A DNA stretch of 64,000 bases from Dehalococcoidia bacterium. GTDB lineage: Bacteria > Chloroflexota > Dehalococcoidia > Lucifugimonadales > UBA2985. The notes under the pieces are model-generated. The model did no database searches and was not told the origin of the DNA. It saw nothing but the letters and a program-made list of their open reading frames with translations. This document shows, one piece after another, positions 2,904 through 41,399 of this stretch. Made by a program: the position numbers and the translations under genes. The DNA is taken from positions 1,785,278-1,849,277 of the forward strand of contig OY821663.2 in the NCBI GenBank assembly GCA_963555975.3, given 5' to 3'. Positions within the stretch are counted from its first letter, which is position 1. Every line of letters starts with the position of its first letter.

Positions 2904-3569
2904 CTAGTACCTGGAGACGTTGATCTCGGTCATCTTGCCGGTGACCATGAATATGACGCGCTCCGCAATGTTGGTGGCGCGGTCGGCGATGCGCTCCAGG
3001 TCGTGGGCTACCCACAGCAGGTACGTTGCGCGCTGGATAGTGTTGGTGTCCCGCACCATGAAGAATATCAGTTCCCGGTACACCTGGTCGTAGAGCGCGT
3101 CCACGTCGTCGTCGTCCTTGCAGACGGCCAGGGCCGCCACGGTGTCCCTGTGAACCAGGGCGTCCAGGCTGCGCCGCAGCATGTCGGTTGCCATCTCCGA
3201 CATGCGAGGAAGGTCGATGAGCGGCTTCAGAGGCGGCTCGTCGTCCATCAGGAGGCAGATCTTGGCGATTCCCTCCGCGTAGTCGCCCATGCGCTCCAGC
3301 TCCACGGCAATGTGCAGCATGGTTATGATGCTGCGAAGGTCGCCCGCCATAGGCTGCTGCGTGGCTATCAGCTCGATGCACTGCTCCTCGAGCGTGTACC
3401 GCTTGCTGTCGATGTAGTCGTCCTCGCGGATGACCTGGCGCGCGGCCTCCGTGTCGCGGCGTTTGAGCGCGTCCAGCGACTTGGCGATGGCCTTCTCAAC
3501 CATGCTGCCCAGGATGAGCAGGTCGCTCTGGAGCATCCGTAGATGCCTGTCGAAATCCGCTCTGACCAT
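2904..3569 (-). CDS. phoU: phosphate signalling complex protein PhoU
   Basis: 221 aa from the ATG at 3569, with GGAGGGAGG upstream. It has a duplicated PhoU fold with the E/D-x-x-x-D-type motifs ELERMGDYAEG and DLERIADRATN. It is the last gene of the pst operon. Confidence 0.9.
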   Translation of the reverse strand: MVRADFDRHLRMLQSDLLILGSMVEKAIAKSLDALKRRDTEAARQVIREDDYIDSKRYTLEEQCIELIATQQPMAGDLRSIITMLHIAVELERMGDYAEGIAKICLLMDDEPPLKPLIDLPRMSEMATDMLRRSLDALVHRDTVAALAVCKDDDDVDALYDQVYRELIFFMVRDTNTIQRATYLLWVAHDLERIADRATNIAERVIFMVTGKMTEINVSRY

Positions 3570-3604
3570 GACTCCACCTCCCTCCGTGCGCGTGTACAAC
3601 CGCG

Positions 3605-4447
3605 TCAGCTGAAGCGGCCGGTGATGTAGGCCTCCGTGTGCTCGCTCCTCGGGTTGGTGAACACCTCGCTGGTTGGGCCGTACTCCACCAGGTAGCCGGC
3701 CCTGTCCTCGTCCATCATCAGGAAGGCCGTGTGGTGCGAAACGCGGGCCGCCTGCTGCATGTTGTGCGTCACGATGATGATGGTGACCTCCTGCGACAGC
3801 TCGCGGATCAGCTCCTCTATCGCCAGCGTGGCCATTGGATCCAGCGCCGAGCACGGCTCGTCCATGAGGATGACCTCCGGCTCCACGGCCAGCGCCCGCG
3901 CAATGCACAGCCGTTGCTGCTGGCCGCCGGAGAGCTGGAGGGCGCTGCGCTTCAGCCGGTCCTTCACCTCGTCCCAGAGGGCGGCGCGCCGGAGAGAACG
4001 CTCCACGCGCTCGCCGGTGTTGCCGCTGATGCCGTTCACCTTCAGCCCGAACGCCACGTTCTCGTAGATGGATTTGGGAAACGGGTTGGGCTTCTGAAAC
4101 ACCATGCCGATGCGGCTGCGAAGCTCCACGGGATCCACGCCCGCGCCGTAGATGTTCTCGCCCTGGTAGAGCACCTCGCCCGCAACGTTGCCGCCGGGCG
4201 TCATCTCGTGCATTCGGTTGAGGCAGCGCACCAGCGTGCTCTTGCCGCAGCCGGACGGCCCGATGATGGCGCTCACCCGCCGGGCGTAGAGCGACAGCGA
4301 GACGTCCTTGACGGCGCGGTGATCGCCGTAGTACGCCTGCAAATTGCGTATGTCTATGACCGACTCCGCCGCGGTGTCTCTGGCCGATTCCACCGTCTCC
4401 TCCGCCTGTTGAGTCTGGCGCATATTCAAGAATTTCTCCGTTACCAT
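3605..4447 (-). CDS. pstB: phosphate ABC transporter ATP-binding protein PstB
   Basis: Walker [10 protein letters not shown], signature LSGGQQQRL and Walker [12 protein letters not shown]. The start overlaps the pstA stop (ATGGTAA). Confidence 0.95.
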
Positions 4448-38660: not shown

Positions 38661-39023
38661 TCAGTTCCCGCCGAGAAGCGACTCCGCTTCCTCCACAAAC
38701 TCCCGCACGCGGCCAAGGCTGAAGGCAACCCTGGCCGTATCCATCCAACCCTCATAAAAGTTGGAGTGCAGGGTGTTGGCCGCATGGAACCCGTATCGTA
38801 GTGTCCTGCTCTGAGTCTCGTCCTCCAGTCTGCCCATGATGGCAAAGAGGAGTCGATGGCTGCCGTGTGCCCAGCCACGTTGGGCTGCGACGGCCTTCAG
38901 GATTTGCGCGGCTGCCCCCCATCCCTTCTCAGCGGCCTGAAGCAGGTCTCCGGCGTCAAGTTCAGCGAAAGCTTGCTCCAGGAATATCCTGCTCCGCTCT
39001 CGGTATGTTTCGTAACCCTGCAA
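38661..39023 (-). CDS. PaREP1-like small helical protein, copy 1
   Basis: TTG start with GGAGAG upstream. It shares the motif GDLLQAAEKGWGAAAQILKAVAAQRGW with copies 2 and 3. The PaREP1 assignment is from memory of that family's LxQASEKxWGA signature. Confidence 0.6.
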   Translation of the reverse strand: MQGYETYRERSRIFLEQAFAELDAGDLLQAAEKGWGAAAQILKAVAAQRGWAHGSHRLLFAIMGRLEDETQSRTLRYGFHAANTLHSNFYEGWMDTARVAFSLGRVREFVEEAESLLGGN

Positions 39024-39226
39024 GGTTTACTCTCCAGCCAACAGTTGCCCGGCTCGCTCGGATTGTAGCGCTGCCCGGGGTAGCTTGTGAGTGACCGGTT
39101 TGCTCAGGCGAGAAGGTGGAGCGCGTCCAACTGCTGCGGGAGTCGAGATTGCTTGAAGGGACACGGCTGAACCCCGGCGCGTCGCCCTCGCCGACTCTGT
39201 GCTCATCCGACTGACCCTGCACCGGG

Positions 39227-39589
39227 TCAGCGTGTCTTGAGCAAGGACTCTGTGGAATCCACGAACTCTTGCACGTCGCCGAGGCTCCACTTTATCAAGG
39301 CTCTATCCAGCCAGCCCTCTGAGAATATGGTGAGCAGGAGGATGGCCGCGCCCAAGCCGTCCAGTAGTTCCTCGCGTTGTTCCTCGCTTGCCAGACTGCA
39401 CACAATGCCGAACAGTTGCTGTTGGCTGTCGTGCTCCCATCCGCGCTCCTCCGCGACGGCCCTCAGCATTTGCGCGGCCGCTGCCCATCCCTTCTCGGAC
39501 GCCTGGCTCAGGTCGCCCGCCTCAAACTCGACGAACGCCTGCTCCAGATAGGCCCTGCCTTGCTCCCGGTATGTTGCAGTGCTCTGCAC
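39227..39589 (-). CDS. PaREP1-like small helical protein, copy 2
   Basis: GTG start with GGGAG upstream. Roughly half of its residues are identical to copy 1 by eye (GDLSQASEKGWAAAAQMLRAVAEERGW). Confidence 0.6.
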   Translation of the reverse strand: MQSTATYREQGRAYLEQAFVEFEAGDLSQASEKGWAAAAQMLRAVAEERGWEHDSQQQLFGIVCSLASEEQREELLDGLGAAILLLTIFSEGWLDRALIKWSLGDVQEFVDSTESLLKTR

Positions 39590-39624
39590 GACTCACGCTC
39601 CCGTTGCGACTGTCTCTCCTGCTC

Positions 39625-39750
39625 GAATTCTAGCACAGTGACCGGCCGGGAGTCACCCGTCGACCAGCCCCCAACCCGCCGCTCCATTCGCTGAAGCCCC
39701 CCCACACCCCGCGTTTGCCCTGCCGCCCGCGCCGTGGTAGTATGGCGGCT
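39625..39750. repeat. ~120-bp duplicated intergenic segment, copy A, containing a promoter-like TTGCCC-17-TAGTAT (39715-39743, + strand)
   Basis: It aligns by eye with 40754-40871 (GAGTCACCCGT...CCCCAACCCGCCGCTC...TCGCTGAAGCCCC...CACCCCGCGTTTGCCCTGCCGCCCGCGCCGTGGTA(G/C)TATGGCGGC). Confidence 0.75.
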
Positions 39751-39780
39751 GTTTTCCATGCGGCAGCGCCGACGCGCTCG

Positions 39781-40155
39781 CTACGCATTCCCGCTAAGGG
39801 CTGCCAGGGCCTTGACCAGTTCCTTGGCGTCTTCTATGCCTTCTCGCACCGAGTCCTCATCAAGGACTGCCTGATAGAAGTTGGCGTGAAGGGCCTCAAC
39901 TGACCTCAGGAGCCTCCGATAGTAGGGCGCGTCTGTCGGATCCCAACTGAAGATTTCTCGGGCATTGTCAATCAGGTGGTTGTGTGAGCCTAGAGGCCAG
40001 CCTCGCTGGCGGGCTATGGCGTTCACGTAGTGAGAAACGGCGCCCCATGCCTTCTCGGATGCCTGGAGCAGTTCTCCCCTGCGAAATTCGTCGTCAGCGT
40101 GCTCCAGGAACTGATTGCTGATAGACAGGTGTTGTTCAGCCGTGGCCACTATCAT
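39781..40155 (-). CDS. PaREP1-like small helical protein, copy 3 (divergent)
   Basis: Motif GELLQASEKAWGAVSHYVNAIARQRGW. Its ATG overlaps the stop of the upstream gene (ATGA at 40155-40152). Confidence 0.6.
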   Translation of the reverse strand: MIVATAEQHLSISNQFLEHADDEFRRGELLQASEKAWGAVSHYVNAIARQRGWPLGSHNHLIDNAREIFSWDPTDAPYYRRLLRSVEALHANFYQAVLDEDSVREGIEDAKELVKALAALSGNA

Positions 40156-40673
40156 TCCCCTGCGTAAGCCTTGGGTTCCGTGTACTCGATGAGAGAGAAC
40201 TGCCCCTCAACGTCCACGAACCGTATCGTTGTCTCCACGCCGAACACGTCGATCAGGTGGAGCGGCTCCCCTATTGCAAATCGTACGGCAGGCGTTGCGA
40301 GCTGTCCGTTGATGGCGATGTTGTTGGCGTAGACATACCCGTCTTTGTGCGGACTCAGCCGTCCCTCTACCCCCGGGATGAATCCGGCGCTCTTGGTGAA
40401 GAGCAGGGCCCTTCTCTCGTCTTGGGACGGCTCCAACCTGAGTGGAACGAGCTCTTCAGGCGAAGGCTCGATAGTGTCCTTGAACGGCAGATGACCTGCC
40501 GCCGCTGCCAGAACCTTCACGGGCTGGTCCGTGCGATAGAGGCTGAACCGGCAATGCCCGTCTTGGCTGCTTATGCCGGTCAGGTATGTGCCGTTGGGAT
40601 AGGCTACCAGAACCACCGCCCCCTTTACGGGCGTACCTTCACCGGACGTAACCAGGAAATCCAAGTTGTTCAT
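40152..40673 (-). CDS. hypothetical two-domain beta-rich protein (N-terminal CarboxypepD_reg-like sandwich), translationally coupled to PaREP1-like copy 3
   Basis: ATG at 40673 is preceded by GGGAGAGG; the longer ORF to 40742 is less likely. The N-terminus VTSGEGTPVKGAVVLVAYPNGTYLTGISSQDGHCRFSL resembles carboxypeptidase-regulatory-like domains. Confidence 0.5.
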   Translation of the reverse strand: MNNLDFLVTSGEGTPVKGAVVLVAYPNGTYLTGISSQDGHCRFSLYRTDQPVKVLAAAAGHLPFKDTIEPSPEELVPLRLEPSQDERRALLFTKSAGFIPGVEGRLSPHKDGYVYANNIAINGQLATPAVRFAIGEPLHLIDVFGVETTIRFVDVEGQFSLIEYTEPKAYAGE

Positions 40674-40753
40674 GTCCTCTCCCGTACCTAAAGCCGGCCT
40701 GCGCTGCTCCTGAGCTTCATTATACAACATGCAACTGCTCATCCTGCCAGCAA

Positions 40754-40871
40754 GAATTGCACGGCTGGCGGCCGCGAGTCACCCGTGCTATCACCCCAAC
40801 CCGCCGCTCAACTCGCTGAAGCCCCGCACCCCGCGTTTGCCCTGCCGCCCGCGCCGTGGTACTATGGCGGC
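40754..40871. repeat. ~120-bp duplicated intergenic segment, copy B, containing a promoter-like TTGCCC-17-TACTAT (40837-40865, + strand)
   Basis: See copy A. Here the predicted promoter faces the EVE-domain gene. Confidence 0.75.
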
Positions 40872-40910
40872 GCGGCATTCAACCCGCAGTCGATACACCG
40901 GGAGAGAGCA

Positions 40911-41399
40911 GTGGCTAGAGGAAAGACCTACTGGATGGTGGCCAGCTCCCTCGAGAACTTTCACATCACCCGAGAACGAGATTTCACGCTCCAGGGCATG
41001 ATGTCCCGCCAGCGCCGCAAGGCCCAGCGCATGGAGCCGGGCGACAGGCTGGTCTTCTACATCACCGGCGTGCAGGTTTTCGGCGCAACGGCCACCATCA
41101 CCTCAAAGTGTTCGGAAGACCACGAGCCCATCTGGAAGAGCGACGGCAAGGCGGACGATTTCCCTTGGCGGGTCAACATTCGGGCCGAGTTCGCCCTTGA
41201 GGACGAGCAGTTCCTGGACGCACGGCAGATCGGCCCTCGCATGGAGTACGTGCGCCGGTGGCCGCCGGAGTTGTGGCCCCTGGCGTTCCAGGGCAACCTT
41301 CACATCCTGCCCAAGGCGGACTTCGAGATGCTGGAGCAGGAGATGCGGAAGGTGACCTCTCGCTGGGCGCAGCGGCGCGTGGCGCAGAACGGCTACTAG
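40911..41399 (+). CDS. EVE/PUA-like domain protein (UPF0310-like)
   Basis: GTG start after GGGAGAG. The pattern KTYWMVASSLENF...MEPGDRLVFYITGVQVFGATATITS...FPWRVNI matches my recollection of archaeal UPF0310 EVE proteins. Confidence 0.6.
   Translation: MARGKTYWMVASSLENFHITRERDFTLQGMMSRQRRKAQRMEPGDRLVFYITGVQVFGATATITSKCSEDHEPIWKSDGKADDFPWRVNIRAEFALEDEQFLDARQIGPRMEYVRRWPPELWPLAFQGNLHILPKADFEMLEQEMRKVTSRWAQRRVAQNGY

Follow-up and report, generated by a model that had tools for sequence, protein, structure and literature searches.

Two candidate PaREP1 (HEPN) two-gene cassettes, one coupled to an all-beta module, between the EVE and lexA genes of a Dehalococcoidia bacterium

We analyzed a 64,000-nucleotide (nt) stretch of the genome of a Dehalococcoidia bacterium (hereafter the window), concentrating on a block of small genes at positions 38661 to 41399. 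An earlier note, made from the DNA letters alone, had drawn attention to three proteins of ~120 amino acids (aa) that are encoded on the same strand and share a motif, one of them overlapping the gene for a 173-aa protein. These observations held. The three proteins (copies 1, 2 and 3) are 120, 120 and 124 aa long, all three contain the motif GDL(L/S)QA(A/S)EK(G/A)W(G/A)A...A(V/I)A..RGW, and the start of copy 3 does overlap the stop of the 173-aa open reading frame (ORF) in an ATGA tetranucleotide. We refer to the 173-aa protein as the beta module. The features of the block, with window coordinates and strand, are listed below.

38661-39023, (-): copy 1, PaREP1 'i-type' protein, 120 aa; PF05942, 63.8 bits
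39227-39589, (-): copy 2, PaREP1 'd-type' protein, 120 aa; PF05942, 42.7 bits
39589-38661, (-): cassette 2, copy 2 then copy 1, an intact paralogue preceded by a His-less one
39781-40155, (-): copy 3, PaREP1-type HEPN protein, 124 aa; PF05942, 47.6 bits
40152-40673, (-): beta-module gene, 173-aa all-beta protein; identified from the ORF, its homologues and an AlphaFold2 (AF2) model
40673-39781, (-): cassette 1, beta module plus copy 3, a translationally coupled operon
39643-39749, no strand: direct repeat copy A, ~105 nt, between copy 3 and copy 2
40769-40871, no strand: direct repeat copy B, ~105 nt, in the intergenic region that separates the divergent beta-module and EVE genes
40911-41399, (+): EVE/PUA-like gene, 162 aa from GTG; PF01878, 29.1 bits
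36590-37786, (-): IS256/Mutator-family transposase, between mazG and lexA; PF00872, E 8.7e-95

A Pfam scan of the window ORFs placed lexA on one side of the block and an aldo/keto reductase gene on the other, and the block itself is nonmetabolic, both in line with the earlier note. Our best explanation, to which as a whole we give about an even chance of being correct, is that a single variable slot, bounded by the core genes EVE and lexA, holds two PaREP1 (HEPN-T clade) cassettes of different kinds, each of two genes and one stacked on the other. The ratio of nonsynonymous to synonymous substitution rates (dN/dS) against orthologues is 0.08-0.26 across all four cassette genes, and therefore these ORFs are not chance ones. 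The 173-aa ORF has an ATG start with a GGGAGAGG ribosome-binding site upstream; a longer, 196-aa reading was ruled out because nearly all homologues are listed at ~173 aa with the same start Met. None of the four cassette proteins has a match in NCBIfam.

The assignment of the small proteins to PaREP1 was put on a firmer footing by profile searches. All three copies exceed the gathering threshold of the Pfam family PaREP1 (PF05942, 24.4 bits), and the matches extend over most of the 115-position model (positions 2-114 for copy 1, 2-106 for copy 2 and 2-115 for copy 3). Copies 1 and 2 are 53% identical, copies 1 and 3 are 35% identical. The small proteins also have weak secondary matches to Pfam HEPN models (E 4.8e-4 for copy 3). 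A profile built from the copies and their orthologues matched the Protein Data Bank (PDB) entries 2jpu/2q00 (E 1.1e-6); the match covers residues 12-112 and aligns the His. By sequence comparison, the three small genes are thus confirmed members of PaREP1, and they probably share the HEPN (RNase-like) fold of which this family is a branch. PaREP1/8 corresponds to the 'HEPN-T (Parep1/8)' clade of Anantharaman et al. 2013, in which the R is missing and the H conserved (PMC3710099).

The best supported part of the block is cassette 1. We surveyed 54 Dehalococcoidia loci from species-level genomes of the Genome Taxonomy Database (GTDB) that carry a stand-alone beta-module gene. A copy-3-type gene lies directly downstream in 53 of them (intact in 50, broken in 3), and a single locus lacks it. 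These neighborhoods bear out the earlier suggestion that the 173-aa protein and copy 3 make up a two-component module. The intact copy-3-type genes mostly start either 4 nt before the beta-module stop (ATGA, GTGA or TTGA) or 2 nt after it. Across loci, the pairwise identities of the two proteins correlate with r = 0.80. In one sample of the class (301 genomes), where copy-3-type orthologues were taken at E <= 1e-50 (the score of the next PaREP1 protein falls from 170 to 108 bits), the 4 genomes with a stand-alone beta module are precisely those with a copy-3-type orthologue, and the two genes adjoin each other in every case. The 54 loci represent 29 different flanking contexts; the pairing is seen in unrelated neighborhoods and also beside a more distant stand-alone beta-module homologue. 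Within the genus, the pair is carried by 5 of 9 genomes, occupying the EVE-lexA site in three (our own genome and two others at 84-87% identity) and other loci in two (65% identity). The dN/dS values are 0.11-0.19 for the beta module and 0.08-0.15 for copy 3. Taken together, the pairing, the co-occurrence, the 29 contexts and the purifying selection show that the beta module and copy 3 form a conserved, autonomous accessory two-gene unit that is inherited together. The unit has the generic traits of toxin-antitoxin or abortive-infection modules, namely small co-directional overlapping genes, co-inheritance, patchy distribution and variable contexts.

Several individual loci deserve mention. 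At loci L020, L035 and L039 (~3500-3900), a frameshift or stop interrupts the copy-3-type gene next to an intact beta-module gene. The breakage could be real decay of a putative toxin or an error of long-read assembly; a second, intact pair is present in the genome of L020/L062. At another set of loci (JGI 3300022658, L077-L079), a DUF6932 gene and a gene for a small protein with a faint helix-turn-helix match lie upstream of a distant stand-alone beta module (175 aa), and no PaREP1 gene follows it. Since DUF6932 stands here instead of PaREP1, free-standing modules may pair with other partners too.

The AF2 model of the beta module is all-beta and consists of two domains (predicted local distance difference test score, pLDDT, 92.6; predicted template modeling score, pTM, 0.88). 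The N-terminal domain (residues ~1-82) is a transthyretin/CarboxypepD_reg-like sandwich, and the C-terminal one (~85-170) is another beta domain. The earlier note had read the N-terminal half as carboxypeptidase-regulatory-like. In Pfam this half matches CarboxypepD_reg and Big_1 weakly (18-19 bits, under cut-off), the CarboxypepD_reg score (PF13620) being 18.1 bits against a cut-off of 32.3. Nevertheless, the structural comparison upheld the reading: in Foldseek the model superposes on the transthyretin-like/carboxypeptidase-regulatory domains of 5aq0, 3e8v and 9hfj over ~83 residues, with a root mean square deviation of ~3 A and template modeling (TM) scores, normalized to the target, of 0.68-0.76. 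In addition, 39 of 114 fused relatives (see below) match PF13620 at E <= 0.001, the best at 1.8e-14. When the whole module was submitted, Foldseek matched the N-terminal sandwich alone. The C-terminal domain, modeled separately, again gave a pLDDT of 92.6. It has no match to any Pfam model and no significant match in the PDB (best E 0.14, TM <= 0.35) or in BFVD (best E 0.028), so its description as an unassigned beta-rich half stands. At the same time, the strongest conservation of the superfamily falls in this domain, in the motif TGxIPGLxGRLNPIxD...YLYADNIAINGG.

Close homologues of the 173-aa protein form at least 190 clusters at 58-87% identity, nearly all of ~173 aa and none of them named; together with the dN/dS values they indicate that the ORF is genuine, as had been assumed. 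When a profile was searched against 1.84 billion representative proteins, 512 relatives of the beta module were found (273 below 1e-10), the match usually spanning both domains (positions ~5-165). The module is mostly C-terminal: an N-terminal extension of at least 60 aa is present in 95 proteins and a C-terminal extension in 13. Pfam matches were compiled for 114 multidomain beta-module proteins, and single architectures were also confirmed individually; the counts are as follows.

TIR_2: 17 proteins
HATPase_c_4: 16 proteins
SLFN_AlbA_2: 8 proteins
TIR: 6 proteins
DUF4143: 5 proteins, three of them also with AAA_14
Pkinase: 3 proteins
Fic-like_C: 3 proteins
SEFIR: 2 proteins
Peptidase_C14 (caspase): 2 proteins
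Trypsin_2: 2 proteins
PIN_8: 1 protein
pYEATS: 1 protein
N6_Mtase: 1 protein

A TIR of the Pycsar type (CAP12-PCTIR_TIR) was found in one separately scanned module protein. The N-terminal parts of the fusions match PADLOC models (ThsB, SpbK, PDC-S01, PD-T4-6 and caspase), and these matches end before the module begins. The contigs of the TIR-module and caspase-module proteins are only 2-4 kb long, too short to show partners. One architecture, SLFN_AlbA_2 plus HATPase_c_4 plus a C-terminal beta module (~580 aa), occurs in 8 of the 301 Dehalococcoidia genomes; examples are L070 3651-5405(-), L073 3591-5333(-), L071 and L072, and in L070 and L071 the gene is flanked by the same two genes.

The 173-aa protein is the free-standing form of a ~160-aa two-domain unit that elsewhere is fused to defense-type domains. 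The partner of copy 3 is therefore not merely novel, as the earlier note would have it, although the novelty holds for its C-terminal domain, which has no known relative. In the conflict-system papers searched, which come from one group, no transthyretin-/carboxypeptidase-type module is described with these effectors. Because the module sits behind effectors, where sensor or regulatory domains sit, we infer that it may act as a sensor or regulator of the HEPN effector.

Copy 3 has R80, R84 and H90 (RSVEALH, Rx5H spacing) as well as H58. All 50 copy-3 orthologues compared have the His at the HEPN position; 48 of them retain R(-9) and R(-10), and 40 retain R(-6). In a 17-sequence alignment (copy 3 and 16 orthologues), H9, H42 and H58 are invariant. 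A canonical Rx5H was considered as the defining trait of copy 3 and rejected, as R(-6) is kept less consistently than the near-invariant R(-9)/R(-10). A conserved His, a variable canonical Arg and other conserved basic residues match the published description of PaREP1. This residue pattern makes copy 3 a candidate RNase; it fits the family description and is not proof of catalysis.

Cassette 2 is of a different kind. Copy 2 has lost both family His residues (GSH to DSQ; LHxNFYE to LLTIFSE), whereas copy 1 keeps GSHR and LHSNFYEGW, with R at -10. We denote the His-less, presumably dead, type as d and the intact, presumably live, type as i. The order d then i, dead upstream and live downstream, is found at the 57k, 461k, 872k, 1506k and 1824k loci of this genome and also in the scaffold of another organism (L083). 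Copies 1 and 2 are thus not the solo duplicates for which they had been taken but represent a recurrent dead-then-live unit. A maximum-likelihood tree of this genome's sequences groups the six d-type copies in a single clade (support 85/89) that is separate from the i-type, an indication that the pair, not the single gene, was the unit of duplication. The d-type copies share the joint loss of the two family His positions. The dN/dS of copy 2 is 0.22 against a 75%-identical orthologue in the metagenome scaffold L082, and the range for cassette 2 is 0.22-0.26. By this measure copy 2 is under purifying selection and is not a pseudogene. Promoter-like sites precede copy 2 (39656-39627(-)) and copy 1 (39091-39062(-)), two having been found against 0.4 expected.

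Comparison with relatives reveals how the two cassettes share the site. In the window both are present between EVE and lexA. In two congeners (L016 and L017) the order is aldo/keto reductase, EVE and, divergently, module, copy 3, lexA and mazG, with copies 2 and 1 absent; in L016 lexA and mazG are adjacent and the IS256-family transposase is missing. In the related scaffold L082, EVE is divergent from a copy-2-like gene followed by a copy-1-like gene, and the module and copy 3 are absent. The latter arrangement makes the two cassettes alternative occupants of one slot. On L082 (positions 1039-2197), the EVE region is 86% identical at the nucleotide level and directly adjoins the copy-2-like/copy-1-like pair.

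The ~105-nt segment listed as repeats A and B precedes each cassette, so that the repeats bracket the beta-module/copy-3 operon. The two copies are 88% identical and are the sole full copies in the genome, which otherwise has a 49-nt partial match; a dispersed repeat, such as a miniature inverted-repeat transposable element (MITE) or a repetitive extragenic palindromic (REP) sequence, was rejected on this ground. In L082 the segment adjoins EVE and precedes the copy-2-like gene. Since this segment stands before both cassettes and relatives have just one of the two at the site, recombination at the segment is the most likely origin of the stacking. Repeat A carries the -35 element of the copy-2 promoter-like site. 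Also within repeat A, both on the + strand, are a TAGTAT -10-like box, from which transcription would run into copy 3 in the antisense direction, and a hairpin resembling a terminator (39730-39747).

The EVE gene, described earlier as divergently adjacent, is real: its PF01878 score compares with a cut-off of 23, the match to NCBIfam PRK00809 is far under its cut-off, and the most likely start is the GTG at 40911. The comparative evidence does not bear out the functional link to the module that had been proposed. Only 2 of the 54 loci, both in congeners, have EVE at a distance of 3 kb or less from the module, and its candidacy as a module component was rejected on these counts. As judged from gene order, EVE is a core-genome backbone neighbor of the cassette slot and a component of neither cassette.

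The three copies are a small part of the PaREP1 complement of this bacterium. We found 39 PaREP1 matches (35 over cut-off) in the 2.37-Mb assembly, distributed over 19 loci and for the most part in arrays of 2-4. The amplification in a bacterium that the earlier note had pointed out is thus confirmed, and it goes far beyond three copies. The copy number is 1-9 in congeners and 12-24 in some other genomes of the same order, and the family is absent from more than half of the 40 relatives sampled. At least three PaREP1 subfamilies are present in this genome, one of them with a canonical Rx4H (RQxxLHGECFYH). This separate subfamily has nine matches of ~127-149 aa, with the pattern MTTVEANAARIF...AEKAWCAT...RQxxLHGECFYH, partly in overlapping triplets. 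Examples on C1 of the genome lie at 2280865-2282042, 931975-932794, 282135-282575 and 1017630-1018067, and the copy at C1:1326585-1326836 has an in-frame TAG. In the literature, PaREP1/8 has been treated as an archaeal family that is nearly confined to thermophiles and has expanded in Crenarchaeota (PMC3710099, PMC2701414, PMC3632139), and tandem arrays of its genes are known (PMC3710099). In view of a 39-copy expansion in a 2.4-Mb bacterial genome, the 'archaeal, thermophile' label is too narrow. PaREP1 was reported never to be paired with MNT, its antitoxin being 'still unidentified' (PMC3632139), and we found no relevant item on PaREP1 in the literature after 2014. It is a large HEPN branch that has stood without known function or partner since 2002-2013.

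A mechanism for the two cassettes can be proposed. In cassette 1, the copy 3 HEPN protein would be the RNA-cutting effector. The beta module would be the sensor or regulatory subunit that binds the HEPN dimer and holds it inactive, until a trigger on the module (a phage component or a ligand) releases or activates HEPN. Cassette 1 would then be a split 'effector plus sensor' system of the abortive-infection or toxin-antitoxin-like kind. In cassette 2, copies 2 and 1 would form a heterodimer in which the dead paralogue silences or tunes the live one, that is, a pseudo-enzyme antitoxin; such silencing is conceivable because HEPN active sites are composite across the dimer. The stacking would be the product of recombination at the shared segment. 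A broader version is possible, though we hold it only tentatively and find it rather doubtful in full. It takes the beta module as an undescribed pair of sensor/regulatory domains of many immune effectors (TIR, SEFIR, caspase, trypsin, PIN, Schlafen, kinase), with a new fold at the C-terminus and a free-standing form that is the partner or antitoxin of a PaREP1 HEPN RNase, while His-less paralogues poison the composite site through heterodimers.

A number of observations weigh against this proposal. PADLOC gave zero matches for the beta module, the three PaREP1 copies and EVE, which includes both proteins of cassette 1, and no beta module-PaREP1 fusion was found among the top 150 profile matches. 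Some fusion partners are of the envelope type (Flg_new, LGFP), and transthyretin-/Big_1-like sandwiches are common in secreted proteins. The association with effector domains leaves sensing, inhibiting, oligomerizing and targeting undistinguished. Moreover, the high conservation of the pair (58-87% identity), its single copy per genome and its within-lineage synteny (for example, 8 loci in one context) are less like fast-evolving defense genes and could fit a cellular role. The canonical Arg of Rx4-6H is kept in only 40 of the 50 partners, and the RNase activity is itself a prediction. Some of these points (the PADLOC result, the conservation, copy number and synteny of the pair, and the variable Arg) also favor a rival explanation, in which PaREP1 proteins are not nucleases but helical adaptors or nucleotide-/RNA-binders, and the pair is a stable heterocomplex with a cellular role in RNA metabolism or stress response. 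It would gain from the strong purifying selection and from the lack of the canonical R of Rx4-6H in the family at large (PMC3710099). However, a cellular role sits poorly with a pair found in just 4 of 301 class genomes and 5 of 9 genus genomes, in 29 flanking contexts, and at different loci even within one genus (65% identity). The fusion partners of the module are overwhelmingly immune or death-type effector domains, and a His and two Arg are almost invariant in copy 3. We regard the non-nuclease explanation as fairly unlikely.

For cassette 2, the alternative is that tandem duplication and decay by unequal crossing-over produced most of the 39 PaREP1 genes, including copies 1 and 2, as a selfish or neutral family whose dead copies have no partner role. 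Tandem arrays are indeed a habit of the family (PMC3710099). Two findings tell against the pseudo-enzyme proposal and for this one: some congeners have the opposite order, i then d, and in the 179k, 438k and 2060k arrays the degenerate copies cluster with their neighbors, as expected of independent local decay. Yet random decay does not readily account for the single d-type clade, which points to duplication of the pair as a unit, for an order that is the same at five loci and in another organism, for the dN/dS of copy 2, or for the joint loss of the same two His. We consider this explanation unlikely. A further possibility, that EVE, the beta module and the PaREP1 genes form one modification-sensing defense locus with EVE reading modified bases, appears highly improbable. 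It is true that EVE is divergently adjacent, sharing its intergenic region with the cassette, and that it adjoins a PaREP1 cassette of either type in our own genome, the two congeners and L082. However, EVE is rarely near the module elsewhere (the two congeners mentioned above), the other module neighborhoods examined, including that of the distant homologue, are without EVE, and its place beside the aldo/keto reductase in the conserved backbone of relatives explains the adjacency by a fixed insertion slot.

The locus is of interest for several reasons. It gives two testable partner hypotheses for PaREP1, a non-HEPN beta module and a catalytically dead paralogue; if true, the joint sensor and pseudo-enzyme reading would explain both the PaREP1 arrays and the lack of MNT. 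It also connects the beta module with dozens of proteins of the TIR, caspase, PIN and Schlafen types, and knowing what the module binds could explain what triggers an entire group of single-protein immune systems. The C-terminal domain, with neither a Pfam model nor a structural relative, is a target for structural work. What appears to be new is a HEPN-based two-gene module of the conflict type, with a partner domain absent from the papers, Pfam and PADLOC searched, in a family treated as archaeal.

Among known systems, HEPN-MNT (HepT-MntA) resembles cassette 1 in being a small two-gene operon of a HEPN-fold protein and a tightly coupled partner, autonomous, patchy and found in variable contexts, and PaREP1 belongs to the same HEPN-T clade. 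The difference lies in the partner, which here is an all-beta two-domain protein encoded upstream, so that control cannot be by MNT AMPylation; no nucleotidyltransferase domain was found in any ORF between 36.5 and 44 kb of the window or beside the module in the neighborhoods examined. The second comparison is with 'effector + C-terminal sensor' proteins (TIR-SAVED, TIR-STING, ThsB-like TIR, caspase/PIN fusions; Kaur et al. 2020, PMC7159879). The beta module resembles the known sensors of such proteins in its place at the C-terminus, after a TIR, SEFIR, caspase, trypsin, PIN, Schlafen or kinase domain. In the window, however, the HEPN effector and the module are separate polypeptides, the C-terminal domain of the module is without a Pfam model or a PDB/BFVD fold match, and no signal-producing enzyme is encoded nearby. 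The closest likeness is to PaREP1/PaREP8 itself (PF05942; 2q00/2jpu, Sulfolobus solfataricus): the Pfam cut-off is passed, the profile matches a solved member, the family His is conserved and the canonical Arg variable, there is no MNT partner, and tandem arrays and lineage-specific expansion (39 here) recur. What sets the present case apart is that the expansion of a family described as archaeal/thermophile is seen in a Dehalococcoidia (Chloroflexota) bacterium, that the beta module, which is not a HEPN protein, is the obligate partner of one subfamily and has no like in the papers, Pfam and PADLOC searched, and that another subfamily forms dead-then-live pairs.

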